A stretch of DNA of 64,000 bases from Escherichia coli (GCF_003790525.1 NZ_CP033634.1); one strand, 5' to 3'. Positions 4,301 through 38,395 are shown, counted from the first letter of the stretch. Numbers and translations are program-made. Notes: a model not told the origin generated them from the sequence alone.

Positions 4301-6589
4301 GGTGTGGGTAAGACCACACAGTTCCGGGCGGTGATGTCAGCCGTGAACATGCTGCCGGAGAGTGAGCGTCCCCGTGTCGTTGGGCTGGGTCCCACGCACC
4401 GCGCGGTCGGGGAGATGCGCAGCGCCGGCGTGGATGCACAGACACTGGCGTCCTTTCTGCATGACACGCAGCTGCAGCAGCGCAGCGGAGAAACGCCGGA
4501 TTTCAGCAACACGCTGTTCCTGCTCGATGAGAGCTCAATGGTGGGCAATACCGACATGGCACGGGCATACGCCCTGATTGCGGCCGGTGGCGGTCGTGCT
4601 GTGGCCAGCGGTGACACGGACCAGCTGCAGGCCATCGCGCCCGGTCAGCCTTTCCGTCTCCAGCAGACGCGCAGTGCTGCCGATGTGGTCATCATGAAGG
4701 AGATTGTGCGTCAGACGCCGGAACTGCGGGAGGCGGTATACAGCCTGATTAACCGGGATGTGGAAAGGGCACTGTCCGGGCTTGAGAGTGTGAAACCGTC
4801 TCAGGTTCCCCGTCAGGAGGGCGCATGGGCACCGGAGCACTCCGTGACGGAGTTCAGTCACAGCCAGGAAGCGAAACTGGCAGAAGCGCAGCAGAAGGCG
4901 ATGCTGAAAGGCGAGGCTTTCCCGGATATCCCCATGACACTGTATGAAGCCATTGTCCGCGACTATACCGGCAGGACACCGGAAGCACGGGAGCAGACGC
5001 TGATTGTCACACACCTGAATGAGGACCGGCGCGTACTGAACAGCATGATTCATGATGCACGGGAAAAGGCCGGTGAGCTGGGCAAAGAGCAGGTCATGGT
5101 GCCTGTCCTGAACACAGCGAATATACGTGACGGAGAACTGCGTCGTCTCTCCACCTGGGAGAATAACCCGGATGCCCTTGCCCTGGTGGATAGTGTGTAT
5201 CACCGGATTGCCGGTATCAGCAAGGATGACGGGCTGATAACCCTGCAGGATGCGGAAGGTAACACGCGGCTGATTTCGCCCCGGGAGGCGGTGGCTGAAG
5301 GCGTCACACTGTACACCCCGGACACCATCCGGGTGGGAACCGGTGACCGGATGCGCTTCACGAAGAGTGACCGGGAGCGCGGTTATGTGGCCAACAGCGT
5401 CTGGACGGTGACAGCGGTTTCAGGTGACAGTGTCACGTTGTCGGACGGACAGCAGACCCGGGTGATTCGCCCCGGTCAGGAGCGGGCAGAGCAACATATT
5501 GACCTGGCTTATGCCATCACCGCCCACGGTGCGCAGGGGGCAAGTGAAACCTTTGCCATCGCGCTTGAAGGCACGGAAGGTAACCGGAAACTGATGGCAG
5601 GCTTTGAGTCAGCTTATGTAGCCCTGTCGCGTATGAAGCAGCATGTGCAGGTGTACACCGATAACCGTCAGGGCTGGACGGATGCCATCAACAATGCCGT
5701 ACAGAAAGGAACTGCCCACGATGTGTTTGAACCGAAACCGGACCGGGAGGTCATGAATGCAGAGCGGCTGTTCAGTACGGCGCGGGAGCTGCGGGACGTG
5801 GCGGCAGGCCGTGCCGTTCTTCGTCAGGCGGGACTTGCCGGGGGAGACAGTCCTGCACGGTTTATTGCTCCGGGACGTAAATATCCGCAACCGTATGTGG
5901 CACTGCCGGCTTTTGACCGTAACGGCAGGTCCGCCGGTATCTGGCTGAACCCGCTGACCACGGATGACGGAAACGGGCTGCGGGGATTCAGCGGTGAAGG
6001 CCGGGTGAAAGGCAGCGGGGATGCACAGTTTGTGGCCCTGCAGGGCAGCCGTAACGGAGAGAGCCTGCTGGCTGATAATATGCAGGATGGTGTCCGGATT
6101 GCCCGTGATAATCCTGACAGCGGTGTGGTGGTGAGAATCGCCGGTGAAGGCCGTCCGTGGAATCCCGGTGCCATCACCGGTGGTCGCGTGTGGGGGGATA
6201 TCCCGGACAACAGCGTCCAGCCGGGGGCCGGAAATGGTGAACCGGTTACAGCTGAAGTGCTGGCACAGCGGCAGGCTGAAGAGGCCATCCGCCGTGAAAC
6301 GGAACGTCGCGCAGATGAAATTGTCCGTAAAATGGCAGAGAACAAACCTGACCTGCCGGATGGCAGAACAGAGCAGGCTGTCAGGGAGATTGCCGGGCAG
6401 GAGCGTGACCGGGCTGCCATAACTGAACGGGAAGCCGCGCTGCCGGAGAGTGTGCTGCGTGAATCACAACGGGAGCGGGAAGCGGTCCGGGAGGTTGCCC
6501 GGGAAAATCTGCTGCAGGAGCGTCTGCAGCAGATGGAGCGGGATATGGTCCGTGACCTGCAGAAAGAGAAAACCCTGGGCGGAGACTGA
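1320..6589 (+). CDS. traI: TraI relaxase/helicase; frame interrupted by an apparent 1-nt loss in a G6 run near 1608-1613 (ORFs 1320-1694 and 1646-6589)
   Basis: N-terminus [35 protein letters not shown] and the 1647-aa downstream ORF both match recalled F TraI; the two ORFs are in different frames and together give full length. Confidence 0.85.
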
Positions 6590-6608
6590 TACAGGAAGAC
6601 AAACACTG

Positions 6609-7355
6609 ATGACAACGGATAACACGAATACGACACGTAACGATTCACTGGCTGCACGGACCGATACCTGGTTGCAGTCGTTTCTGGTCTGGTCACCCGG
6701 ACAGCGGGATATCATCAAAACGGTGGCACTGGTGCTGATGGTACTGGACCACATCAATCTGATATTCCAGCTGAAGCAGGAATGGATGTTTCTGGCCGGG
6801 CGAGGAGCCTTTCCGCTGTTTGCCCTGGTGTGGGGGCTGAATCTGTCCCGTCATGCGCATATCCGGCAACCGGCCATTAACCGGCTGTGGGGATGGGGAA
6901 TTATTGCCCAGTTCGCATATTATCTGGCCGGCTTTCCCTGGTATGAGGGGAATATCCTGTTTGCCTTTGCAGTGGCGGCACAGGTGCTGACGTGGTGTGA
7001 AACGCGCAGTGGGTGGCGTACAGCAGCGGCCATTCTTCTGATGGCCCTGTGGGGGCCCTTGTCCGGCACCAGTTACGGCATTGCCGGGCTGCTGATGCTG
7101 GCAGTCAGCCACCGGCTGTACCGGGCGGAAGACAGAGCGGAACGTCTGGCGCTGGTCGCCTGCCTGCTGGCTGTTATTCCGGCGCTTAACCTTGCCACCA
7201 GTGATGCAGCGGCGGTGGCCGGTCTTGTGATGACGGTGCTGACCGTTGGTCTGGTGTCGTGTGCAGGAAAATCATTACCCCGTTTCTGGCCCGGGGATTT
7301 TTTCCCGGTATTCTACGCCTGTCATCTGGCTGTGCTGGGCGTTCTGGCGCCGTGA
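6609..7355 (+). CDS. traX: TraX F-pilin acetylase
   Basis: MTTDNTNTTRNDSLAARTDTWLQS... near-identical to recalled F TraX; ATG at 6609 inside the longer listed ORF. Confidence 0.9.
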   Translation: MTTDNTNTTRNDSLAARTDTWLQSFLVWSPGQRDIIKTVALVLMVLDHINLIFQLKQEWMFLAGRGAFPLFALVWGLNLSRHAHIRQPAINRLWGWGIIAQFAYYLAGFPWYEGNILFAFAVAAQVLTWCETRSGWRTAAAILLMALWGPLSGTSYGIAGLLMLAVSHRLYRAEDRAERLALVACLLAVIPALNLATSDAAAVAGLVMTVLTVGLVSCAGKSLPRFWPGDFFPVFYACHLAVLGVLAP

Positions 7356-7409
7356 CGGGTGTGGTATCTTTGACCGTAACAGGATGATTCGTCAGAGGCA
7401 GAACACAGC

Positions 7410-7970
7410 ATGACAGAGCAGAAGCGACCGGTACTGACACTGAAGCGGAAAACGGAAGGGGAGACGCCTGTCCGCAGCCGGAAAACCATCATCAATGTCA
7501 CCACGCCACCAAAGTGGAAGGTGAAAAAGCAGAAGCTGGCCGAGAAAGCAGCCCGGGAAGCAGAGCTGGCGGCAAAAAAAGCGCAGGCCAGACAGGCACT
7601 GTCCATTTATCTGAACCTGCCCACGCTGGATGAGGCCGTGAATACCCTGAAACCCTGGTGGCCGGGATTGTTTGACGGTGACACGCCCCGGCTTCTGGCC
7701 TGCGGTATCCGGGACGTGTTACTGGAAGACGTGGCGCAGCGGAATATCCCGCTCTCGCATAAAAAACTGCGCAGGGCGCTGAAGGCCATCACCCGTTCAG
7801 AAAGCTATCTGTGTGCCATGAAAGCCGGTGCCTGCCGGTATGACACGGAAGGGTATGTGACGGAGCATATTTCTCAGGAGGAGGAAGCGTATGCGGCAGC
7901 GCGTCTGGATAAAATCCGCCGCCAGAACCGGATAAAGGCAGAACTTCAGGCCGTGCTTGATGAGAAATAA
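7410..7970 (+). CDS. finO: FinO fertility-inhibition RNA chaperone
   Basis: 186-aa product [14 protein letters not shown]... matches recalled F/R100 FinO; position after traX is canonical. Confidence 0.92.
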
Positions 7971-8557
7971 AAAAGCCTCCGTCAGAGAGAGGAGGCAGGG
8001 AAATAAGGCTTAAAGGAAATAACTTCCGTACCCAAAAGGAAATCGGTCCACTGAATTATTTAACACCATAATGTTGACGGGTTAAAGAGGAGTGATAAAG
8101 ATGAATGGATTCAGAAACAGTTCACGGAACGGTCAGGTCTGGCGCTGGCAGCGTGCCGGAAGCCGGGCCGTTATTCTGGAGGTCAGTGGACGCTGGATGG
8201 AAGCGGCAGAAGCATGGCGACGGGCTGCCGGTGTTGCACCCCGGACAGACTGGCAGCAGTTTGCCCGAAAAAGGGCTGAACAATGCCACCGACGCTGCCG
8301 GGGAAGGGTGTAACGAAAAAGCAGCCTTCATTACTCCAGGGATTCAGAAGGCTGAATAATGCATGAGATTTGCTTTTTTTAATATCCGGTCGGGCAGTAT
8401 GACCGGACAGTTCTGAGTAGCACAGAGTTTTTTCCGTATTAAGTCGTGATTTTATATTTTGTGATTAATTTCGCAAAATAAGGTGTTATTCAGTGTGTGC
8501 TGCGATATTCAGGATTACCTGAAATACAGGTGCCATTTATCTGATATGGAGAATAAT

Positions 8558-9019
8558 ATGAGGAAATATATTCCACTGGTATTATTTATCTTTTCATGGC
8601 CGGTATTGTGTGCAGATATTCATGGACGGGTTGTTCGTGTACTGGACGGTGATACCATCGAGGTCATGGACTCACGGAAGGCAGTGCGGATCAGGCTGGT
8701 AAATATTGATGCACCGGAAAGGAAACAGGATTATGGCCGGTGGTCAACGGACATGATGAAATCACTGGTTGCAGGAAAAACGGTTACCGTCACATATTTT
8801 CAGCGAGATCGTTATGGTCGTATTCTCGGGCAGGTTTATGCACCAGACGGAATGAATGTTAATCAGTTTATGGTCCGGGCCGGGGCTGCCTGGGTATATG
8901 AGCAGTACAACACAGATCCCGTGCTGCCTGTCCTTCAGAACGAAGCCAGACAACAAAAACGTGGGCTCTGGTCAGATGCTGATCCGGTTCCCCCCTGGAT
9001 ATGGAGACACCGTAAATAA
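8558..9019 (+). CDS. Secreted thermonuclease-family (staphylococcal-nuclease-like) endonuclease
   Basis: Signal-peptide-like N-terminus MRKYIPLVLFIFSWPVLCA then SNase-like motifs (LDGDTIEV, RLVNIDAPE, DRYGRILGQVY); GGAG 6 nt before the ATG at 8558. Confidence 0.75.
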   Translation: MRKYIPLVLFIFSWPVLCADIHGRVVRVLDGDTIEVMDSRKAVRIRLVNIDAPERKQDYGRWSTDMMKSLVAGKTVTVTYFQRDRYGRILGQVYAPDGMNVNQFMVRAGAAWVYEQYNTDPVLPVLQNEARQQKRGLWSDADPVPPWIWRHRK

Positions 9020-9064
9020 AGCGATGGCAATCTTATCATTCATCTGTTCTCAGCGGGAATAAAA

Positions 9065-9274
9065 ATGGCGAAAACAAAACAGGAATGGCTGTATCAGTTA
9101 CGGCGATGTTCATCAGTCAATACGCTGGAAAAAATTATTCATAAAAACAGAGACAGTTTATTAAACAGTGAACGTGAATCATTTAATTCAGCAGCAGACC
9201 ACCGGTTAGCGGAATTAATCACCGGAAAGTTATATGACAGGATACCAAAAGAGATATGGAAATATGTAAGGTAA
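9065..9274 (+). CDS. Hypothetical small protein
   Basis: 69-aa ORF between nuclease and DUF2726 genes in the same orientation; no recognisable domain. Confidence 0.4.
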   Translation: MAKTKQEWLYQLRRCSSVNTLEKIIHKNRDSLLNSERESFNSAADHRLAELITGKLYDRIPKEIWKYVR

Positions 9275-9311
9275 TAATTCAACATAATTAATTTCCAGGA
9301 ACAGATAAATA

Positions 9312-9902
9312 ATGAAGTTGATTATTTTTATTCTCATTGTTCTGATTATTGCAGCGTTACTTATCCGGATTATCCTCAGAAGTGTAAATCAGCATTCTCC
9401 TTTGCTGATGCAGTTACATGCGGCAGGTATACGGACCGGTGATGCAGAGCGAATACTGTCCGGCGGTGAATACTGGCAACGTCAGAAGACGCTGCTGACA
9501 GAAAGGGAAGTCAGTTTTATGAAAGGACTGTTCAGAATTGTGGATATGAAGCGGTGGTATCTGTGTCCGCAGGTACGGGTCGCGGATATCGTCCAGCTGA
9601 ACGGGAATATCCGGCCACGATCACGCCAGTGGTGGCAGTTATTCAGGATGGTGTCTCAGTGGCATGTTGATGTGGTTATCGTTGAGCAGCGTTCGTTCAG
9701 TATTGTTGCAGCAGTAGAGCTGGATGATGCCAGCCATTTACGACCGGAACGCAGACGCCGGGATATTCTTCTGGAAGAGGTTCTGAGGCAGGCTGGTATT
9801 CCGTTGCTCAGAAGCCACGATGCCAGAAAACTGCTGCAGATGACCGGAGAATGGCTGAATACAACAGGGGCTGATCAGCAGTCCCCGGAACATCGTAGCT
9901 GA
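9312..9902 (+). CDS. DUF2726-like (nuclease-related fold) protein with N-terminal transmembrane helix
   Basis: Hydrophobic N-terminus; central WHVDVVIVE and ELDDASH segments recalled as typical of DUF2726 proteins common downstream of finO in IncF plasmids. Confidence 0.65.
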   Translation: MKLIIFILIVLIIAALLIRIILRSVNQHSPLLMQLHAAGIRTGDAERILSGGEYWQRQKTLLTEREVSFMKGLFRIVDMKRWYLCPQVRVADIVQLNGNIRPRSRQWWQLFRMVSQWHVDVVIVEQRSFSIVAAVELDDASHLRPERRRRDILLEEVLRQAGIPLLRSHDARKLLQMTGEWLNTTGADQQSPEHRS

Positions 9903-10056
9903 CGCCTTCGCGTTGCTCAGTTGTCCAACCCCGGAAACGGGAAAAAGCAAGTTTTCCCCGCTCCCGGCGTTTCCGTAATAAAAAACGGGAAATGGTGGTC
10001 ACAGAATAAATTCCGGAACTACCTGTACCCAAACTTTATATAATAAAGGTGAATAT

Positions 10057-10506
10057 ATGGAATATGATGATGTATCAGAATTGATGATTAAGCGTGAACA
10101 CAATATTCTTATTGTTGGGAATTCTGCCTCCCACATTGATAAGTTTTTTAAGGAGTATTCTATACCAAGTTCTAAATATTATGATTTCACTCAGATTAAC
10201 AGTGATTCAGATGTAGAGAGAAATGAGAATGCTGTCTCTTTTATCAGGGATGCAATGAATAGTGAAGAGCTCACAATCATTTTTAATTGCGTTGGGTGGC
10301 CTGATTTAGGTGGTGGAGCAGCAGTATCACAGTTTGCAATGATGGCCAGAAAATTTGGTAAACAACTTATTGTCGCTGTAAGTGAAAAGGATGCCATCAA
10401 ATTAAAAGACAACTTTGATATTATTGGGATGTTGTCATATGGTAAAGAAAATTTTATTGCCATGAGTCATACGAAAAGCGAGTTAACTGGAGGGAAACGT
10501 CGGTAA
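10057..10506 (+). CDS. Hypothetical 149-aa protein in an AT-rich segment flanked by imperfect direct repeats
   Basis: Clean ORF with ATG start; Rossmann-like ILIVGNSA and GGG-containing segments; function unassigned. Confidence 0.5.
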   Translation: MEYDDVSELMIKREHNILIVGNSASHIDKFFKEYSIPSSKYYDFTQINSDSDVERNENAVSFIRDAMNSEELTIIFNCVGWPDLGGGAAVSQFAMMARKFGKQLIVAVSEKDAIKLKDNFDIIGMLSYGKENFIAMSHTKSELTGGKRR

Positions 10507-10649
10507 CGGATTAAAAATAGATGTAAATAAAAAGCATACTTATTGGCTGGAGTGACGCCTTCGTGCTTCGGTAGTAAAAAACGGGAAATGAAGGTAATAG
10601 TCAGCAACAGGGAATGTGGTATTATCGCGGCGGGTGTCTGAGCCTTTCT

Positions 10650-10740
10650 GGTTCAGGCAAGACGCAGGTACCAGAAATGCGAAGACCCCACTTGTTAATC
10701 CATTAACTCGTGAGGTCTGCATGAAGTACTTGAACACTAC
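10650..10740 (-). ncRNA. Putative SrnC-like antisense RNA (approximate)
   Basis: Position inferred from the Hok/Sok paradigm (antisense across the leader start region); promoter not identified. Confidence 0.3.
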
Positions 10741-10927
10741 TGATTGTAGCCTCTTCCTTGCAGAGAGGTCAAAGTTTATGACGAAATATGCCCTTATCGG
10801 GTTGCTCGCCGTGTGCGCCACGGTGTTGTGTTTTTCACTGATATTCAGGGAACGGTTATGTGAACTGAATATTCACAGGGGAAATACAGTGGTGCAGGTA
10901 ACTCTGGCCTACGAAGCACGGAAGTAA
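10721..10927 (+). CDS. SrnB leader/overlapping reading frame (mok-like) of Hok-family type I toxin locus
   Basis: In-frame upstream ATG at 10721 (MKYLNTTDCSLFLAERSKF) ahead of the toxin ORF, the arrangement recalled for srnB. Confidence 0.5.
   Translation: MKYLNTTDCSLFLAERSKFMTKYALIGLLAVCATVLCFSLIFRERLCELNIHRGNTVVQVTLAYEARK
10778..10927 (+). CDS. srnB: SrnB, Hok/Gef-family membrane toxin (type I toxin-antitoxin)
   Basis: MTKYALIGLLAVCATVLCFSLIFRERLCELNIHRGNTVVQVTLAYEARK, a typical ~50-aa Hok-family peptide; GAGAGG before the ATG at 10778. Confidence 0.8.
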   Translation: MTKYALIGLLAVCATVLCFSLIFRERLCELNIHRGNTVVQVTLAYEARK

Positions 10928-11210
10928 GCTGCCGGGCGGGGACGGAAGTCCCCGCTTTCCGGGAGTGTGAGGTATTTCAGGGGCAGACACCCTACACGTC
11001 AGAAACCGCCGGTCCCGCCCGGGGCCGGCACACAGGTTAAGGCATTTCCTGTTTTTCAGCCATTTCGCAACAAAATTCACACTAAACGACAGTAATCCCC
11101 GTTGATTTGTGCGCCAACACAGATCGTCGTCACAATTCTCAAGTCGCTGATTTCAAAAAACTGTAGTATCCTCTGCGAAACGATCCCTGTTTGAGTATTG
11201 AGGAGGCGGG

Positions 11211-31026: not shown

Positions 31027-31434
31027 CACCGTTACACGTTTTACACCCTAAAATGTTATGAAAAACCTTTCTGAACAAAGCCTGTAGCCTGATTTGTGTA
31101 ATTCTCATCGATATGAAGCAATAAGTTGAGAATTTTTTAATATGGGGCTCATTAATTCTCAACAATTAAGTGTGGCATAACATTAATGTCTAAAACTTCT
31201 CAGTCTCGCATGCCAGATTGGTTCGTAGTCGTCGAGTGGTGATTGTGACAATAAAGATCGAAACTTATGCTTTATCAACATGGCTATCTTAGATAAGTGT
31301 GCCAACAAAGTTTGAAACACACTTTTGCCCCATTATGAGTTACAACCCAAAGTTCAAACAGTGATGTTGAGGTAACTTTGATATACAAAAAGTAATGAAC
31401 AGCAAAAGATAAAAGCTGAGCCAATTTGTTCACA

Positions 31435-32523
31435 CTATTCAGTTAGCATGAGCTTTGCTTTAAGAAACGTAAGTTTGATGTCATCAGTTTTGGTGAACTT
31501 GAACTTACCGTCAGTAGAAGCGTTAAACCTTTCAAAATAGTATTCAAGTAGCGGATCGTACCTGCCACCGTGAACCCAAGTGTAGAACTTACCAAGTTCA
31601 TAACGTAACTCTTTATCAAGTTCAGATCTTATTCTCAGCTCACTATCGTTTGCTAGTTCAACGATGTTCATTTCTTGAAGGTTCGTCTTAATCTCTTCAA
31701 TCAGAGGTAGGAGGGATTCTTTATACTTATCAGCCAATGGTACAAGGTCAGCGTCAGTTACTTCCGCTTCAAAAATCATAATCAGGTCGTCAATCTCCCC
31801 GTTATAGTAATCGTTATCTAATCGTTTTTCTGACTCAGTACGAAGAACATAGAGTTGTTCTAAAGGATCTAATTTAGTCTCAATTTTTTCTTTTGAAAGT
31901 TTGTGTTGATACTCAACAAACAGCGTTTCAATCCTATCAGCAATAACATCAAGATACTCATATCGAATTCTGAGAAATTCCAACAGCTCATTGATATTGA
32001 GGTTTAACGTTAGGTCTTCTTTACCCACATCTCGACTGTACAAATGAACACTCAAATCGCCAGTGTTGAAATGACTTTGAAATGGCCAACTTGCGAAACG
32101 CTTTGAGTTTTCTTGATTCAGATTTACGGGGTGAGCACCGAAACACGCCCTGATAGTTTTAAAATAATTATTATCATCTTCATTAGCGAAGAGGCGATCT
32201 TTGAAACATTTCTTTTCACCATAAAACGGATCTTTCTTATCAGTTATAAACACTCGATGGAGTTGTTTTATTGACTCGAAAATAAGGTCTATTGAAGAGA
32301 TCAGAGAGTAGACCTGCATACATCTACTATCTATGTTCTTGTCAAACTCAGGCGCATTTTCTAAGTGGCGAACAGAGACAGAGATCCAATCCATAGCAGA
32401 GCAAACGAGGTTAAAAAGATTCTTACCACCTTTATCTTTGTATATTTGATACACAAAGCTAGAGTTTGAGTTAACTAAGTCTCGAAAATCACTGATTTTA
32501 TCGTCACTAACAACGTTTCTCAT
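31435..32523 (-). CDS. Hypothetical 362-aa protein, candidate abortive-infection effector (Rx5H HEPN-like motif)
   Basis: Long clean ORF in a low-GC segment; RACFGAH fits the Rx4-6H HEPN pattern; no other family recognised. Confidence 0.6.
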   Translation of the reverse strand: MRNVVSDDKISDFRDLVNSNSSFVYQIYKDKGGKNLFNLVCSAMDWISVSVRHLENAPEFDKNIDSRCMQVYSLISSIDLIFESIKQLHRVFITDKKDPFYGEKKCFKDRLFANEDDNNYFKTIRACFGAHPVNLNQENSKRFASWPFQSHFNTGDLSVHLYSRDVGKEDLTLNLNINELLEFLRIRYEYLDVIADRIETLFVEYQHKLSKEKIETKLDPLEQLYVLRTESEKRLDNDYYNGEIDDLIMIFEAEVTDADLVPLADKYKESLLPLIEEIKTNLQEMNIVELANDSELRIRSELDKELRYELGKFYTWVHGGRYDPLLEYYFERFNASTDGKFKFTKTDDIKLTFLKAKLMLTE

Positions 32524-32958
32524 TCTCTAATCGCCTTCTAACCAATTGAAAATATTATGAAGAATGGCAAAAATGATAGTGATAGTTCTTCAATTCTTCA
32601 ACTTCTTTTTTGATTTGAAGTGAAGTGATACGCTGGGTTTTGTCACTTAGTTAGATTTGAACGATGAGGATCTCTAGCCAGTTGTATTGCTAGGCATTAT
32701 CCGAAGACAAATAGAAGAACTGAACCTCGAAGTAACTTTTATCCTAGGACGTGCTGAAGCTGGTCTCCGCAAACTTGTGATCTAGGCCAACACGCCTTTG
32801 CCCCCAAAACATTTAAAGCTATCCCTCATCACACCTTGCTAACTCGTTACTTGCCCGAATTTTTGTAATGAGCCAATATGCTATTAGTTGGTTATCCACT
32901 TAATTGTTTTATCAATTTATTTGATGACAATTTACACCATGTGTTCAAGGTATTGATT

Positions 32959-34059
32959 ATGGAATTACAGACAAGGCTAGTTTTTATCGATACAAGCGCT
33001 TTTGAAAAGAAAAACTATCAATTTGGGCAACACGCTCTTGGTCGTCTTCAAGAACTAATTGAGGATGAGAAAATCCACTTGCTCATTACTGATGTGACAA
33101 GGAAAGAGATCGACTCCCATCTCAAACACAAATCTGAAGAAGCAGCTTCTATGATAAAGAAGATGCAAAGAGATGCGATGTTCCTAAGAAACACCCCCGA
33201 CCTTGATTGTCATGGCATCTTCACCAAGATTAAAGGTGATGATATTTATGCTGTTATCAGTGAAAAATTTGATGATTTCGTCGAAAACGGCTACGTCGAA
33301 ACAATTGATGTAAGCACTGTTAACCCTCAAGTTGTATTTGATGCTTACTTCAACAACCTTCCTCCTTTTGGCAAAGAATCAAAAAAGCACGAGTTTCCTG
33401 ATGCATTTGCGCTAGAAGCTATTAAACAGGTGAGCTTGGCTAGAGGATATTCAGCCTATATCGTTAGTGACGACGGCGATATGAAATCATTCTGTGAGAA
33501 AGAAGATAACTTCATTCATCTTGAAAATGTCGATGACCTAATTGACTTGATTGTTCGAAGCGACAAAGCGTACGAAGAACCAGCCAAATTTGCTGATGAA
33601 ATATTCGAACAACTCCTAGAACAAATCAAAGCGGATGCCCTGCAAGCTCTCGAAGATGGCGAGTTCAACTATGAAAACGCAGATCCTTTCGATGAGACTA
33701 TCAATTCTATAGAAATCAACTCGGTGAATGTTGGGAAGAAAAACTTACAGAATGTCGATGCCGAGTGGGCTGAATACGAAGTAGAATTTGAGGTGGTTGT
33801 TACGGCAGATTATCGATTCTCAGATTATGACCGTTCACCTTGGGACCCTGAAGACAAGCAATATGTATTCGTCTTGAGTAATGAGTCAACAGTAAAACAC
33901 AAAGAAACATACACTGCCCACATAACACTTGCCTATACCGATGGATTAAAAGCTAACGCATACATTGAAGAGTTTTACTTCCAAGATACATATTTTGAGC
34001 TGACTGATAATGACTCCGAAGTCATTAGCTTCAAAGAACTAGATATCAACGGTGAATGA
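32959..34059 (+). CDS. PIN-like domain protein (resembles DUF4935-type PIN-like nucleases); alternative upstream start at 32878
   Basis: N-terminal LVFIDTSAF...LLITDVTRKEI...EFPDAFALEAI...YIVSDDGDM pattern of acidic residues on a PIN-like scaffold; stop lies 2 nt before the next gene. Confidence 0.6.
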   Translation: MELQTRLVFIDTSAFEKKNYQFGQHALGRLQELIEDEKIHLLITDVTRKEIDSHLKHKSEEAASMIKKMQRDAMFLRNTPDLDCHGIFTKIKGDDIYAVISEKFDDFVENGYVETIDVSTVNPQVVFDAYFNNLPPFGKESKKHEFPDAFALEAIKQVSLARGYSAYIVSDDGDMKSFCEKEDNFIHLENVDDLIDLIVRSDKAYEEPAKFADEIFEQLLEQIKADALQALEDGEFNYENADPFDETINSIEINSVNVGKKNLQNVDAEWAEYEVEFEVVVTADYRFSDYDRSPWDPEDKQYVFVLSNESTVKHKETYTAHITLAYTDGLKANAYIEEFYFQDTYFELTDNDSEVISFKELDINGE

Positions 34060-34060
34060 C

Positions 34061-34529
34061 ATGAAGCTATATGTAATAGGTAATGGCTTTGATGTTCATC
34101 ATGGCCTTGACACTAGGTATACATCTTTTGGGCTTTATCTCAAAAATAACTACTGGGAAACTTATGAACTATTGCTCGACTATTACGGGTTTGCTGACTT
34201 AGACCCAGATTTTCCAACAACAATGTCAGACCCTTTATGGTCTGAATTTGAAACGAGTATGTCACTGCTTGATAAAGATTCAGTTTTGGAAGCAAACATG
34301 GATGCAATGCCAAACTATTCTTCAGATGACTTTCGAGACAGAGACCGATACACGCTTGAAATTGAGATGGAGCGAATACTTGGCCTTCTAACCACTGAAC
34401 TGTATAAAGCATTCAAAGAGTTCATTTTGGCTGTACAGTTTCCTCAGTTTGATCACAGCCGATCAGTAAACATTGATAGAGACGCTGTTTACCTCACATT
34501 CAACTACACAGATACGCTTTCTCAATACT
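34061..34529 (+). pseudogene. AbiH-like abortive infection gene, truncated at codon 156 by IS2
   Basis: N-terminus MKLYVIGNGFDVHHGLDTRYTSF matches the recalled AbiH N-terminal signature; the frame runs into the IS2 left end at 34530. Confidence 0.6.
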
Positions 34530-34620
34530 TAGACTGGCTCCCTGAATCTCCAGACAACCAGTATCACTTAAATAAGTGATAGTCTTAATACTAGTTTTTA
34601 GACTAGTCATTGGAGAACAG

Positions 34621-34986
34621 ATGATTGATGTCTTAGGGCCGGAGAAACGCAGACGGCGTACCACACAGGAAAAGATCGCAATTGTTCAGCAGAGCTTTGA
34701 ACCGGGGATGACGGTCTCCCTCGTTGCCCGGCAACATGGTGTAGCAGCCAGCCAGTTATTTCTCTGGCGTAAGCAATACCAGGAAGGAAGTCTTACTGCT
34801 GTCGCCGCCGGAGAACAGGTTGTTCCTGCCTCTGAACTTGCTGCCGCCATGAAGCAGATTAAAGAACTCCAGCGCCTGCTCGGCAAGAAAACGATGGAAA
34901 ATGAACTCCTCAAAGAAGCCGTTGAATATGGACGGGCAAAAAAGTGGATAGCGCACGCGCCCTTATTGCCCGGGGATGGGGAGTAA
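34621..34986 (+). CDS. insC: IS2 OrfA (InsC)
   Basis: [56 protein letters not shown]... Confidence 0.92.
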
Positions 34987-35849
34987 GCTTAGTCAGCCGT
35001 TGTCTCCGGGTGTCGCGTGCGCAGTTGCACGTCATTCTCAGACGAACCGATGACTGGATGGATGGCCGCCGCAGTCGTCACACTGATGATACGGATGTGC
35101 TTCTCCGTATACACCATGTTATCGGAGAGCTGCCCACGTATGGTTATCGTCGGGTATGGGCGCTGCTTCGCAGACAGGCAGAACTTGATGGTATGCCTGC
35201 GATCAATGCCAAACGTGTTTACCGGATCATGCGCCAGAATGCGCTGTTGCTTGAGCGAAAACCTGCTGTACCGCCATCGAAACGGGCACATACAGGCAGA
35301 GTGGCCGTGAAAGAAAGCAATCAGCGATGGTGCTCTGACGGGTTCGAGTTCTGCTGTGATAACGGAGAGAGACTGCGTGTCACGTTCGCGCTGGACTGCT
35401 GTGATCGTGAGGCACTGCACTGGGCGGTCACTACCGGCGGCTTCAACAGTGAAACAGTACAGGACGTCATGCCAGGAGCGGTGGAACGCCGCTTCGGCAA
35501 CGATCTTCCGTCGTCTCCAGTGGAGTGGCTGACGGATAATGGTTCATGCTACCGGGCTAATGAAACACGCCAGTTCGCCCGGATGTTGGGACTTGAACCG
35601 AAGAACACGGCGGTGCGGAGTCCGGAGAGTAACGGAATAGCAGAGAGCTTCGTGAAAACGATAAAGCGTGACTACATCAGTATCATGCCCAAACCAGACG
35701 GGTTAACGGCAGCAAAGAACCTTGCAGAGGCGTTCGAGCATTATAACGAATGGCATCCGCATAGTGCGCTGGGTTATCGCTCGCCACGGGAATATCTGCG
35801 GCAGCGGGCTTGTAATGGGTTAAGTGATAACAGATGTCTGGAAATATAG
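34944..35849 (+). CDS. insD: IS2 OrfB (InsD) transposase catalytic part (expressed as OrfAB frameshift fusion)
   Basis: DDE integrase-like ORF overlapping orfA in the -1 frame. Confidence 0.92.
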
Positions 35850-35957
35850 GGGCAAATCCAGTGATATCCAATTCATTCAGTCTGTAAACACAATAGTGGA
35901 CATTCTCACATTGTCAAACGTGTATAGTTAGAGAGTGGAAGTAAAAGTGTATGGGTG

Positions 35958-36056
35958 GTTATTGCTGAGTACGATGACCGGTTCGTTGCGAAGGTCCGGG
36001 CGGAAAACTTTTTCACATGAGGCGTAGAAACTGTTGATATCAGCCAGTGCAAACAT
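35958..36056 (-). pseudogene. impB: impB 5' portion (first 33 codons)
   Basis: MFALADINSFYASCEKVFRPDLRNEPVIVLSNN matches the recalled UmuC N-terminus; the ATG overlaps the impA stop. Confidence 0.75.
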
Positions 36057-36493
36057 CAGCGTAACTCCCGCGTCCTGTGTATCACGTGAGTGACAACACC
36101 AAAAATACAGATGTTTTCCGGATACAGTGTGCGGAACTCCGGGCTGTCTGAAACCGGCTCCAGTGCCGGGCGTGGGCGCAACAGCAGTCGTTTGACGGTG
36201 AACTCACCATCGATCTCAGCGATAACGATGTCCCCGTGTTGTGGTTTTTCGGCCCTGTCCACTACCAGCAGATCACCATTCTGCACGCCAGCCTGGTTCA
36301 TCGATTCACCGCTGGCGCGCAGAAAGAAGGTGGCTGCAGGTCTGCTGATGCAATAGCTGTTCAGATCCAGTTCCTGCTCAGCATAATCAGTGGCAGGCGA
36401 AGGAAAACCGGCCAGGCAACGATCGGCAAACAACGGTCGCACGTAACTGTCATTGCCTGAAGGGTCAGCCGGACGGTGATAAACGGTACTCAT
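36056..36493 (-). CDS. impA: ImpA (UmuD-like, LexA-type S24 peptidase fold)
   Basis: 145-aa product aligns with recalled UmuD (FPSPATDYAEQELDLN...GESMNQAGVQNGDLLVVD...GDIVIAEIDGEFTVKRL). Confidence 0.88.
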   Translation of the reverse strand: MSTVYHRPADPSGNDSYVRPLFADRCLAGFPSPATDYAEQELDLNSYCISRPAATFFLRASGESMNQAGVQNGDLLVVDRAEKPQHGDIVIAEIDGEFTVKRLLLRPRPALEPVSDSPEFRTLYPENICIFGVVTHVIHRTRELR

Positions 36494-36738
36494 GCTGCAG
36501 GCAGCCAGCTGTCGTCCTGCCAGATTTCTTCCAGCAGAGACAGGATACGTTCTTTATCCTTGTCGTTGCGGGCTCCTGTGACAGATACAGACGGGGCGCT
36601 GCCCTGGTCTATACGCAGCCAGATTTCCGGGTAGTGTGGTTTCAGACGTCGTTCGATTTCATTCTGTAGCGCCTGAAGTGTGCCTGATTTGAGGTTTTTT
36701 GTGCTCTGGCGGTCGAAAAGAATTTCAATGCGGATCAT
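36490..36738 (-). CDS. impC: ImpC, small first gene of the impCAB operon
   Basis: 82-aa ORF from ATG 36738 with GGAG upstream; stop overlaps the impA start; sits between the LexA box and impA. Confidence 0.7.
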   Translation of the reverse strand: MIRIEILFDRQSTKNLKSGTLQALQNEIERRLKPHYPEIWLRIDQGSAPSVSVTGARNDKDKERILSLLEEIWQDDSWLPAA

Positions 36739-36761
36739 GTTCTCATCTCCCTTTTCTTTTG

Positions 36762-36777
36762 CTGTATGTATATACAG
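36762..36777 (-). promoter_or_regulatory. LexA (SOS) box CTGTATGTATATACAG upstream of impC
   Basis: Perfect CTGT-N8-ACAG palindrome 24 bp upstream of the impC start. Confidence 0.7.
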
Positions 36778-37378
36778 TATTCTAATAACTGAATCCACAC
36801 ACAGTCAAATGTCATTATTGTGACTAAAAAACGCTCAATTCTCTGAGGGTGTGGCTGTATGCCTGCTGTGGACTGCTGTGTCCAGCTTATCCACAGCATT
36901 TTGCGCACGGTTCTGTGAATAAAATACCTGGTTACCCAGGCCGTGCCGGCACGTTAACCGGGCTGCATCCAATGCAAGTGTGTCGCTGTCGCCGGCATCC
37001 TCACCAGGTCACTCAGCAGTCAGGGAGAAAAATGGCGGATGAAGTATGACGGAGACGGTCGGGCAAGTGCCCGTTTCTTTTCCGACAAAGGATGTCGCCG
37101 TGCTCCTCTTTTTACTGCGCCGGCTGACGCGGCGCGGCATAAACGCTGCCTGTGGTCAGTGTCCCGCGTCCGGCGGGCACGGGACGGGCGCTTTTACCGC
37201 TCCCGGCTGGCACCGGTGACAGTGTACGCCAGCCCGTCGCCCTTTTCTGATGAACGCCCTTCAAGCCGCTTTCGCGAATGAAAGGGACATCTTATTCGGT
37301 CTTTACGCTGGAGAGTTACTTTGGAAGACTGCGTCAACACGATGATAAGCGTACAAAGCCATTGTTAAGGGATCCTCT

Positions 37379-38395
37379 ATGACTGTTGTTACTGTCGGTA
37401 TTGATTTAGCTAAAAATGTGTTCGCTGTGCATGGCGTTAATGCTGCAGGAAAAGCTGTTTTAGTTAAGCCTCTTGTGCGTCGGGCTAAATTGCTTGAATT
37501 GATTGCAACACTTCCAGCATGTCTGATTGGAATTGAAGCATGTACAGGTGCACATTACTGGGCAAGAGAGTTCCAGAAAATGGGGCATACAGTTCGAATT
37601 ATGGCGCCGCAACTGGTTTCTCCATACCGTATGGGTGGCCGTCATGGGAAAAATGATGCTGCAGATGCCGCTGCCATTTGTGAAGCTGTTACCCGTCCTA
37701 ATATGCGGTTTGTTCCCATAAAATCAGTTGAGCAGCAAGGGCAGTTATTTGTACACAGAGCTCATCAGGGATATGTCAGTGAGAGAACAGCATTGATTAA
37801 TCGCATCCGGGGATTGCTCAGTGAGTTAGGTATTGTTCTCCCGCAGGCGTTTAAAGCGTTTTTATCCGGGGTGGCTCAGGTCCTTGAGGATTTGCCCGGT
37901 TACTGTAATCAGGTTATTGGTGATCTTCTTAATGAGCTTTATCACATAGAAGAAAAGATTAAAAACAGTGAAAAACTCATTCAGCAACTTGCCAGAGATA
38001 ACTCAGCAGCACAACTACTAATGCAATTCAGGGGGATAGGCCCGATGACTGCAACAGCAATCGTTGCCAGCATAGGTAATGGTCATGATTTCAAGAACGG
38101 ACGTCAGTTTAGTGCCTGGCTGGGGCTAACACCAAGACAACAAAGTTCCGGGGGGAAAGCACGGTTAGGGAGAATAACTAAAGCCGGCGACAGCTATCTC
38201 AGAACACTTCTTGTTTTGGGGGCGAGATCTGTATTGTTGGGAGCAGCTAAAAATGATGATCCGGTCAGTCGATGGGCCCTGCAGTTAAAAGAAAGGCGAG
38301 GATATGGACGAGCGCTTGTTGCGATAGCAGCAAAAAATGCACGTATGTGCTGGGCAATGTTGCACCTGAGAGATGAATTCAGATTTCCTGCCTAG
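37379..38395 (+). CDS. IS110-family transposase/recombinase
   Basis: 338 aa; N-terminal RuvC-like segment (VGIDLAKNVFAVHG...IGIEACTGAHYW), NDAADAAAICEA motif and C-terminal GIGPMTATAIVASIGNGHDF segment; element ends not determined. Confidence 0.85.
   Translation: MTVVTVGIDLAKNVFAVHGVNAAGKAVLVKPLVRRAKLLELIATLPACLIGIEACTGAHYWAREFQKMGHTVRIMAPQLVSPYRMGGRHGKNDAADAAAICEAVTRPNMRFVPIKSVEQQGQLFVHRAHQGYVSERTALINRIRGLLSELGIVLPQAFKAFLSGVAQVLEDLPGYCNQVIGDLLNELYHIEEKIKNSEKLIQQLARDNSAAQLLMQFRGIGPMTATAIVASIGNGHDFKNGRQFSAWLGLTPRQQSSGGKARLGRITKAGDSYLRTLLVLGARSVLLGAAKNDDPVSRWALQLKERRGYGRALVAIAAKNARMCWAMLHLRDEFRFPA

Follow-up and report, generated by a model that had tools for sequence, protein, structure and literature searches.

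SEs (strand-biased circularizing integrative elements) carry an intA-tfp-intB-srap operon at their left end and leave an asymmetric mark where they integrate: the central 6 bp of attB stays at attL, while the spacer laid down at attR comes from the left flank of the donor (PMC10214605). A table of 37 SEs with defined termini (PMC10214605; Mob DNA 14:7, Additional file 8) includes SE-SenBL10, which lies at 1982483-1992641 of the Salmonella enterica BL10 chromosome NZ_CP024619.1 and has a length of 10,159 bp and a GC content of 38.19%. The gene umuC is a reported integration hotspot of tmexCD-toprJ-hp-hp-int-int structures (PMC10654056, PMC8547460), and these two-integrase structures have been classed as SEs (PMC10214605). 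Here we analysed a 64,000-nucleotide stretch of Escherichia coli DNA (GCF_003790525.1, NZ_CP033634.1; hereafter the window), in which the umuC homologue impB is interrupted by an AT-rich insert at 31027-35957. An earlier note, made from the sequence alone, had described this insert as a compact, possibly non-autonomous defence-cargo element and could not place it in any described transposon family. We conclude, with a probability of about 0.93, that it is a dead copy of the 10,159-bp element SE-SenBL10, truncated by the insertion sequence IS2.

The insert in impB and its intact siblings

The foreign insert breaks impB at 31026/31027 and 35957/35958. The 5' part of the gene (35958-36056, minus strand) consists of 33 codons ending in ...PVIVLSNN; its translation, MFALADINSFYASCEKVFRPDLRNEPVIVLSNN, begins MFALADINSF. 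The 3' part (29848-31026, minus strand) lies on the attR side and, as its open reading frame (ORF) and translation show, continues from the Asn-Asn codons onward as (N)NDGCVIARS.... The translations of both pieces thus bear out the split described earlier. In plasmid pGZM7d, which is identical to the window, the 3' part is annotated as a umuC pseudogene 'missing N-terminus'. The hexamer GTTATT, which reads AATAAC in element orientation, is present at both junctions, as the earlier note had seen: at 31021-31026, beside terminus C' in attR, and at 35958-35963, beside terminus C in attL, where it is the central 6 bp of the target itself.

We rebuilt the empty impB site as a 1,200-nt query by taking out the insert and one hexamer. 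This site was matched in 2,264 plasmids over at least 80% of its length, and the best matches covered 100% of it in a single piece at 99.9% identity. The genes in these best matches are all annotated as Y-family polymerase/ImpB, followed by UmuD/ImpA and DinI/ImpC. Since uninterrupted impB is seen in one piece in plasmids, the intact gene has a single GTTATT, which agrees with what had been proposed. The insertion inactivates impB in this plasmid.

Terminus C', the intA-distal imperfect inverted repeat (31027-31044, CACCGTTACACGTTTTAC), is identical in all copies examined. Terminus C occupies 35941-35957, its reverse complement being CACCCATACACTTTTAC. The two match in 15 of 18 aligned columns, with two mismatches and one indel, so the imperfect inverted repeats reported earlier are real; they also agree with the 13-19 bp imperfect terminal repeats of SEs and are the same in all copies. 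A scan of 30900-36100 returned 85 inverted-repeat pairs of at least 14 nt, and the terminal pair was not among the 25 longest. By itself the terminal repeat is unexceptional; it carries weight because it lies exactly at both junctions and is unchanged in every other copy examined. The lower GC of the insert was upheld by a windowed analysis, which gave 0.34-0.41 over 31000-34600 against 0.48-0.55 in impB and impA, with about 38% for the insert.

Intact siblings of the insert were found in other records. A megablast search with the cargo (31027-34539) recovered the whole stretch in 23 plasmids at identities of at least 99.8%. About 20 plasmids and 24 E. coli chromosomes have intact copies, placed at the same Asn-Asn codons of umuC/impB, and 30 complete E. 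coli genomes out of 5,426 contain core-gene sequence. The cargo on pSC138 of Salmonella Choleraesuis runs on past the position at which IS2 starts in the window, through a full-length abiH gene (319 aa). This is followed on the opposite strand by genes of 441, 1,992, 1,851 and 1,530 bp, of which the last bears the annotation tyrosine recombinase, and then by umuD. The pSC138 element measures 10,159 bp with a GC content of 38.3% and has the same termini as the window. Its core proteins are a 509-aa tyrosine recombinase (IntA), a 616-aa Tfp, a 663-aa IntB and a 146-aa Srap, with the cargo next to them.

These core genes identify the family. The Tfp (WP_011264068.1) and Srap (WP_011264070.1) of pSC138 are both in the list of SE tfp-srap orthologues of Idola et al. 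2023 (PMC10214605, Additional file 3). On pAQU1, the SE with blaGMA-1 (SE-Pda04Ya311) encodes colinear homologues of all four core proteins, with E-values of 4e-42 to 0 and identities of 51% for IntA, 37% for Tfp (36.6), 40% for IntB and 49% for Srap (48.9). Both the listed accessions and the pAQU1 identities place Tfp and Srap in the SE orthologue clusters. IntA matches the Pfam model Phage_integrase (E 5.2e-7) and, weakly, Xer models. The core proteins are 68-86% identical to those of a Pseudoalteromonas copy, and this similarity, together with the low GC, fits a marine origin.

Plasmid p113k of strain BL10 encodes proteins with the same accessions as the Tfp and Srap of SE-SenBL10 (WP_099949651.1 and WP_099949652.1). 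Furthermore, tfp and srap start at the same offsets from the element start, 1,629 and 5,469 bp, in SE-SenBL10 and in pSC138. Plasmid p113k aligns with the window over 29870-34529 at 99.6% identity and over 35861-36500 at 99.2%; on these alignments, it evidently holds the same element at the same site of the same impB. Both arms of the insert are more than 99% identical to, and colinear with, full copies that have the left-end intA-tfp-intB-srap operon. All four core genes fall within the 6,559 bp that IS2 has replaced in the window, and since the window copy lacks them, we file it as a decayed derivative and not as a functional SE. The insert that had seemed to fit no described family is therefore a copy of an element that is already catalogued, in a described family whose use of this target is already known, and not a new kind of transposon.

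Some points weigh against this assignment. The link to SE-SenBL10 probably holds, but it rests on shared protein accessions, equal length, equal gene offsets within the element and the GC content. No experiment on SE-SenBL10 is given in the main text of the source study (PMC10214605). IntB and Tfp have no significant match in Pfam or among PDB sequences, so the recombinase nature of both rests on the literature. Lastly, attB and the C and C' arms showed no convincing similarity when compared by eye. Nothing specific came up in the literature under the name of this element or for umuC in combination with AbiH.

Hexamers, target site and the loss of the core genes

We tabulated the junctions in element orientation (intA on top) for nine copies of which both ends were examined. 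The two hexamers differ in six of these copies; they are equal in the window, its twin pGZM7d and pSC138. The attL hexamer, beside C, always equals the local empty site, which is AATAAC for genes of the impB type and AATAAT for umuC of the E. coli chromosome. On the chromosome, the empty site (...CTATCG AATAAT GACGG...) was found in one piece at 100% over 400 nt, and at least 80% of this query is present in 5,383 of the 5,426 genomes. The attR hexamer varies independently of the flank, as AATAAC, AACAAT, AATAAT or AACAAC. On the impB flank of the window, it is AATAAC in the window itself, AACAAT in p113k and AATAAT in short element stubs on IncF plasmids, while on the Morganellaceae umuC flank it is AATAAT or AACAAT. 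Five E. coli chromosomal copies all have AATAAT at attL, with AATAAC at attR in four and AACAAC in one.

This asymmetry, with the hexamer of the target at attL and that of the donor at attR, is the one described for SEs. The split attB is kept in attL and attR, a 6-bp spacer lies in the inferred C'-C joint, and the empty impB and umuC sites are intact in thousands of records. The 6-bp target duplication of the earlier note does not survive this comparison: in most copies with both ends the hexamers are unequal, and that of attR does not occur in the empty site, which is not the pattern of a true target-site duplication by a DDE element or one resembling a miniature inverted-repeat transposable element. 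Judging from the junctions of all copies, we read the hexamers as the 6-bp donor fingerprint of an SE. All attR variants read AAY-AAY (Asn-Asn), so the donors would have been the same position of other umuC genes, and the hexamers in the window match because its donor site also read AATAAC.

Every copy examined is located at the NN codons of the VLSNNDG motif, which confirms the suggestion that a conserved motif of a Y-family polymerase gene is the target. As expected of SEs, the sites are few. The motif is occupied in four umuC alleles: the IncI-type impB, the chimeric gene of pSC138, E. coli chromosomal umuC and the umuC of Morganellaceae plasmids. A plasmid copy and a chromosomal copy occur together in strains SY3626, E18, SCU-106, O68:H12 97.3 and BL10, and where a chromosomal copy has AATAAC at attR, this fits a jump from a plasmid site of the impB type. 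In pSC138 (attR flank at ~14559-14600 of sequence L003), the umuC sequence to the left of the SE is the impB allele of the window, and that to its right (GATGGCTGCGTTATTGCCCGGAGT...) is another umuC allele. This suggests that recombination may have occurred between SE copies in different umuC genes.

The missing core genes are explained by IS2. This element of 1,331 bp (34530-35860, plus strand; inverted repeats 34540-34571 and 35820-35851) is annotated as IS2 in pGZM7d. In an alignment of the window with pSC138 (NC_006856.1), 30257-34529 corresponds to 15328-11056 of L003 and 35861-37012 to 4496-3345 of L003. The intervening 6,559 bp of pSC138 (4497-11055) are missing from the window, with IS2 in their place. 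The four core genes (intA, tfp, intB, srap) and the 3' half of abiH were all in the lost sequence. On its right, IS2 borders directly on a position 4 bp upstream of the start codon of the lost intA, and on its left it interrupts abiH after codon 156. We looked for a 5-bp direct repeat flanking IS2 and found none (flanks ..AATACT and GTGAT..). Since this repeat is lacking and 6,559 bp have been replaced, IS2 is not a simple insertion, which suggests that a deletion associated with IS2 occurred or that two IS2 copies recombined. IS2 had been described as a later, separate insertion; it is later, but it is not the simple insertion that this implies. Likewise, the insert does lack a transposase of its own, but this is a secondary loss, as intact copies encode intA-tfp-intB-srap where IS2 now lies. 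A chromosomal SE copy that also contains IS2 (L012) was considered as the precursor of the deletion and rejected, since its insertion sequence lies at a different place.

Apart from the window, pGZM7d is the only record in which the IS2-deleted form was seen; its context there is the same, and the 3,513 bases searched (cargo and left IS2 junction) match the window at 100% identity. A search of the complete genome of strain GZM7, which carries pGZM7d, turned up no SE core genes elsewhere. In published experiments, recombination between attL and attR was not restored when intA or intB was supplied in trans, and their authors argue that an intact operon beside attL is needed (PMC10214605). Since the window copy has no recombinase left, GZM7 has no core genes and trans complementation failed, we consider this copy to be stranded.

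We infer the following history. An intact SE would carry IntA and IntB as tyrosine recombinases, Tfp with a recombinase fold, and Srap at its left end, with the cargo after them. By the published SE mechanism (PMC10214605), recombination between attL and attR would copy out a circular intermediate in which 6 bp from the left flank of the donor form the spacer that joins C' to C. The circle would then integrate at the Asn-Asn codons of the conserved SNNDG motif in umuC-type genes, leaving the target's hexamer beside C and the donor-derived hexamer beside C'. In the window, the element would have entered impB from a donor that also read AATAAC. IS2 would then have entered, and an IS2-associated deletion or recombination between IS2 copies would have taken out 6,559 bp. 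This would have left both recombination ends, two intact cargo genes, a truncated abiH and an inactivated impB. The element had been taken for a compact, possibly non-autonomous carrier of defence cargo; it is indeed foreign, AT-rich, now non-autonomous and equipped with defence-type cargo, but its compactness is that of a broken copy of a larger autonomous SE.

Could the insert be something other than a decayed SE-SenBL10? A compact, non-autonomous cut-and-paste (DDE-type) cargo transposon of an undescribed family, with a true 6-bp duplication and a transposase elsewhere, would explain the same GTTATT at both window junctions, the short imperfect inverted repeats and the lack of a recombinase gene in the insert. 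However, siblings of full length have these same ends and a four-gene tyrosine-recombinase module of their own, and the mapped deletion at IS2 accounts for the missing genes. With the hexamers unequal in six of the nine two-ended copies and the attR hexamer foreign to the target, we give this explanation almost no credence. It is also extremely unlikely that the parental element is a genomic island with three integrases (GInt, ginABCD) and not an SE. GInts have the same general layout, with three recombinase-like genes and a small fourth gene at one end, then cargo and a short AT-rich far end, and they are reported to be commoner than SEs in Escherichia (PMC10214605). Yet the tfp/srap pair stands in the SE orthologue list of the same authors, who report GinC/GinD and Tfp/Srap as separate clusters (PMC10214605), and both the gene order, with the non-catalytic protein second, and the 37-51% identity to a named SE fit an SE.

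Whether the remnant might be a working mini-SE, copied out and integrated in trans by intact SE-SenBL10 and so spreading a compact cargo cassette, is a separate matter. C and C' are intact together with their flanking hexamers, and in the several strains with both a plasmid and a chromosomal SE copy, helper and remnant could coexist. On the other hand, the only second record of the IS2-deleted form is the identical pGZM7d in the same context, its strain has no intact copy, and intA or intB in trans failed to restore recombination between attL and attR (PMC10214605); we regard a working mini-SE as very unlikely. The broader combined proposal, that the cargo genes are new one- or two-gene anti-phage systems and that stubs are mobilised in trans by intact SEs as mini-SEs, is unlikely as well. 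A stranded copy of SE-SenBL10 thus remains our preferred reading, and the signs of novelty (no transposase, a 6-bp duplication, no family) dissolve because intact siblings were examined. A matching 6-bp flank with short terminal repeats can mimic a new transposon, and here it is what the SE signature looks like after the mobility genes are lost.

Cargo genes and other copies of the element

The cargo of the window consists of three genes. The first (31435-32523, minus strand) is intact, is transcribed divergently and encodes an uncharacterised helical protein of 362 aa. This protein had no match in Pfam, NCBIfam, PADLOC, PHROGs or PDB sequences. Its 386 homologues come mostly from marine Gammaproteobacteria, and R125-x5-H131 is invariant in their alignment; the family with this R-x5-H motif is widespread in Proteobacteria and Firmicutes. 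The AlphaFold2 model of the protein is mostly helical (predicted local distance difference test score 90), and its fold matches are only uncharacterised proteins or generic helical bundles. A homologue in Edwardsiella ictaluri is encoded between traN and an ssb-recT-yqaJ block, a context that we take to resemble the variable region of an SXT/R391-type integrative and conjugative element (ICE).

The second cargo gene (32959-34059, plus strand) is also intact and encodes a 366-aa protein with a PIN_12 domain (Pfam PF16289, E = 4.7e-36, residues 8-175). It is annotated as 'PIN domain-containing protein' in pSC138 and pGZM7d and nearly abuts abiH; the PIN-abiH pair also occurs together on a Shewanella baltica plasmid. 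The third is a 5' fragment of abiH (34061-34529, plus strand). Its frame runs into IS2, and comparison with pSC138 shows that it retains 156 of 319 codons. The full-length AbiH of the sibling (319 aa) matches the PADLOC AbiH model (E = 1.1e-29), while the window encodes only residues 1-156, fused to IS2 sequence, and this truncated AbiH is very probably inactive. The earlier note had ascribed abortive-infection-like features to all three genes; the defence-profile search supports this for abiH, but for that one gene only, and in the window it is truncated. A defence role for the two intact cargo genes is plausible. The low-GC cargo and the GTT... junction had raised the idea of an integron cassette. 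This was dropped on reading the sequence: no attC-like site was seen by eye (no attC scan was made), GTTATT is unlike GTTRRRY, and the element has its own recombinases.

The cargo is flanked by two short segments of the element. The attR-end segment (31027-31308) is non-coding and 282 bp long; it also survives alone as a stub beside umuC on many IncF plasmids. The attL-end remnant (35861-35957, 97 bp) begins 4 bp upstream of the start codon of the lost intA and ends with terminus C. It was found over its full length at 99-100% identity in 20 plasmids (19 at 100%), and in the copies examined the attL-end sequence lies directly upstream of intA.

Other copies have decayed by different routes or carry different genes. 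On the Moellerella wisconsensis plasmid pNX2019-MW2 (NZ_CP129023.1, 12001-15023), the same SE occupies a Morganellaceae plasmid umuC and keeps the first 305 bp of its attR end, with the AbiH/PIN/362-aa cargo swapped for dfrA1 and a small ORF, followed by srap, a truncated intB, IS4321 and IS26. Providencia pC131 and Proteus pSNYG35 keep the cargo with full-length abiH. The sequence that they share with pSC138 stops about 180 bp past abiH, with umuD next, and neither the core genes nor terminus C remain. Across the attR junction of pSNYG35 there is an unrelated element, which has two integrase genes and a SIR2 gene. On the IncF plasmid NZ_CP023959.1 and about 30 similar ones, the 282-bp attR stub stands beside a umuC 3' pseudogene, and next come IS5, a gene for a UvrD helicase and a hypothetical gene; these regions may be the remains of another SE with different cargo. 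The IncHI2 plasmid p23141-mcr (NZ_MF788071.1, 11882-25973) contains a distant SE-like module outside umuC, with genes for an integrase, a Tfp-like protein (30% identity) and proteins of 675 and 173 aa. Next to it are an N-acetylmuramidase gene and a cluster of the cyclic-oligonucleotide-based antiphage signalling system (CBASS) type (nucleotidyltransferase, ThiF/E1, JAB, SAVED). An intact SE core region is also present in both assemblies of the chromosome of E. coli NCTC86, presumably Escherich's 19th-century isolate. Given this strain, the element may long predate its recent spread on plasmids.

These copies are relevant to annotation, as a whole or decayed SE-SenBL10 often lies concealed where umuC or impB is a pseudogene on IncI, IncF and Morganellaceae plasmids. 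From the attR hexamer one can read where a copy was inserted before, so that a chromosomal copy with AATAAC implies an impB-type donor, and such 6-bp fingerprints offer a record of plasmid-to-chromosome jumps between umuC genes.

Several further features were observed around impB. Terminus C' (...CGGTG in element orientation; 31027-31029 in the window) provides an in-frame GTG start before AAT AAC GAT..., and the 3' part of impB then reads as a 393-aa ORF whose product would miss the N-terminal 31 residues. The equivalent ORF in Providencia pC131 is annotated as an intact umuC coding sequence by the Prokaryotic Genome Annotation Pipeline (PGAP). An IS110-family transposase gene, called ISShdy1 in pGZM7d, is located just past impC (37379-38395), and the impCAB region of the plasmid thus holds at least two insertion sequences. 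On the other side of impB, perfect 8-bp tandem repeats (ATAACAAG x6.9 at 29772-29826 and AAGATAAC x4.4 at 28660-28694) flank a parA-like gene (29018-29644) and a small downstream gene (28719-29021). These repeats may be partition-site iterons.

Comparison with known systems

Among described systems, Tn554 shares with this element two tyrosine recombinases and a small accessory protein, target specificity and a donor-carried 6-bp footprint, but it has no Tfp counterpart and belongs to Firmicutes (PMC10214605). GInts (Bardaji et al. 2017) share the tripartite layout, the three recombinase-like genes with a small gene and site-specific integration. They differ in forming distinct protein clusters and in their gene order (ginA-ginB-ginC-ginD), and the SE description sets them apart (PMC10214605).

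The tmexCD-toprJ elements (SE-PaeBT2436 and relatives) are SEs for which umuC is a reported hotspot on plasmids, ICEs and chromosomes, and they differ in their resistance cargo. No such element was recognised among the Tfp matches examined; the one distant match that was opened (~30% identity) carries CBASS. The hexamers of tmexCD-toprJ SEs in Aeromonas are reported as TATCGA and CATCGA (PMC10214605). A TATCGA pattern fits ...C TATCGA ATAAT... in the E. coli umuC attL flank (2480-2500 of L004), 5 bp upstream of the crossover hexamer. By this sequence match, the tmexCD-toprJ SEs and the SE-SenBL10 lineage may use adjacent positions of the same conserved motif.

The SEs of Vibrio and Photobacterium (SE-6283, SE-6945 and SE-Pda04Ya311; Nonaka 2018 and 2022, Idola 2023) have the same four-gene module in the same order, imperfect terminal repeats of 13-19 bp, the same 6-bp footprint behaviour and low GC. 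Their cargo is blaGMA-1 or none, whereas elements of the SE-SenBL10 type carry AbiH, PIN_12 and the 362-aa protein, and their reported targets are bcp, insJ and yjjNt in contrast to umuC here. Closest of all is SE-SenBL10 itself. The insert in the window has the termini, cargo and impB site of the p113k copy and is 99.2-99.6% identical to it over all that the window retains. It differs in lacking 6,559 bp, in whose place it carries IS2, and in its attR hexamer, which is AATAAC in the window and AACAAT in p113k.

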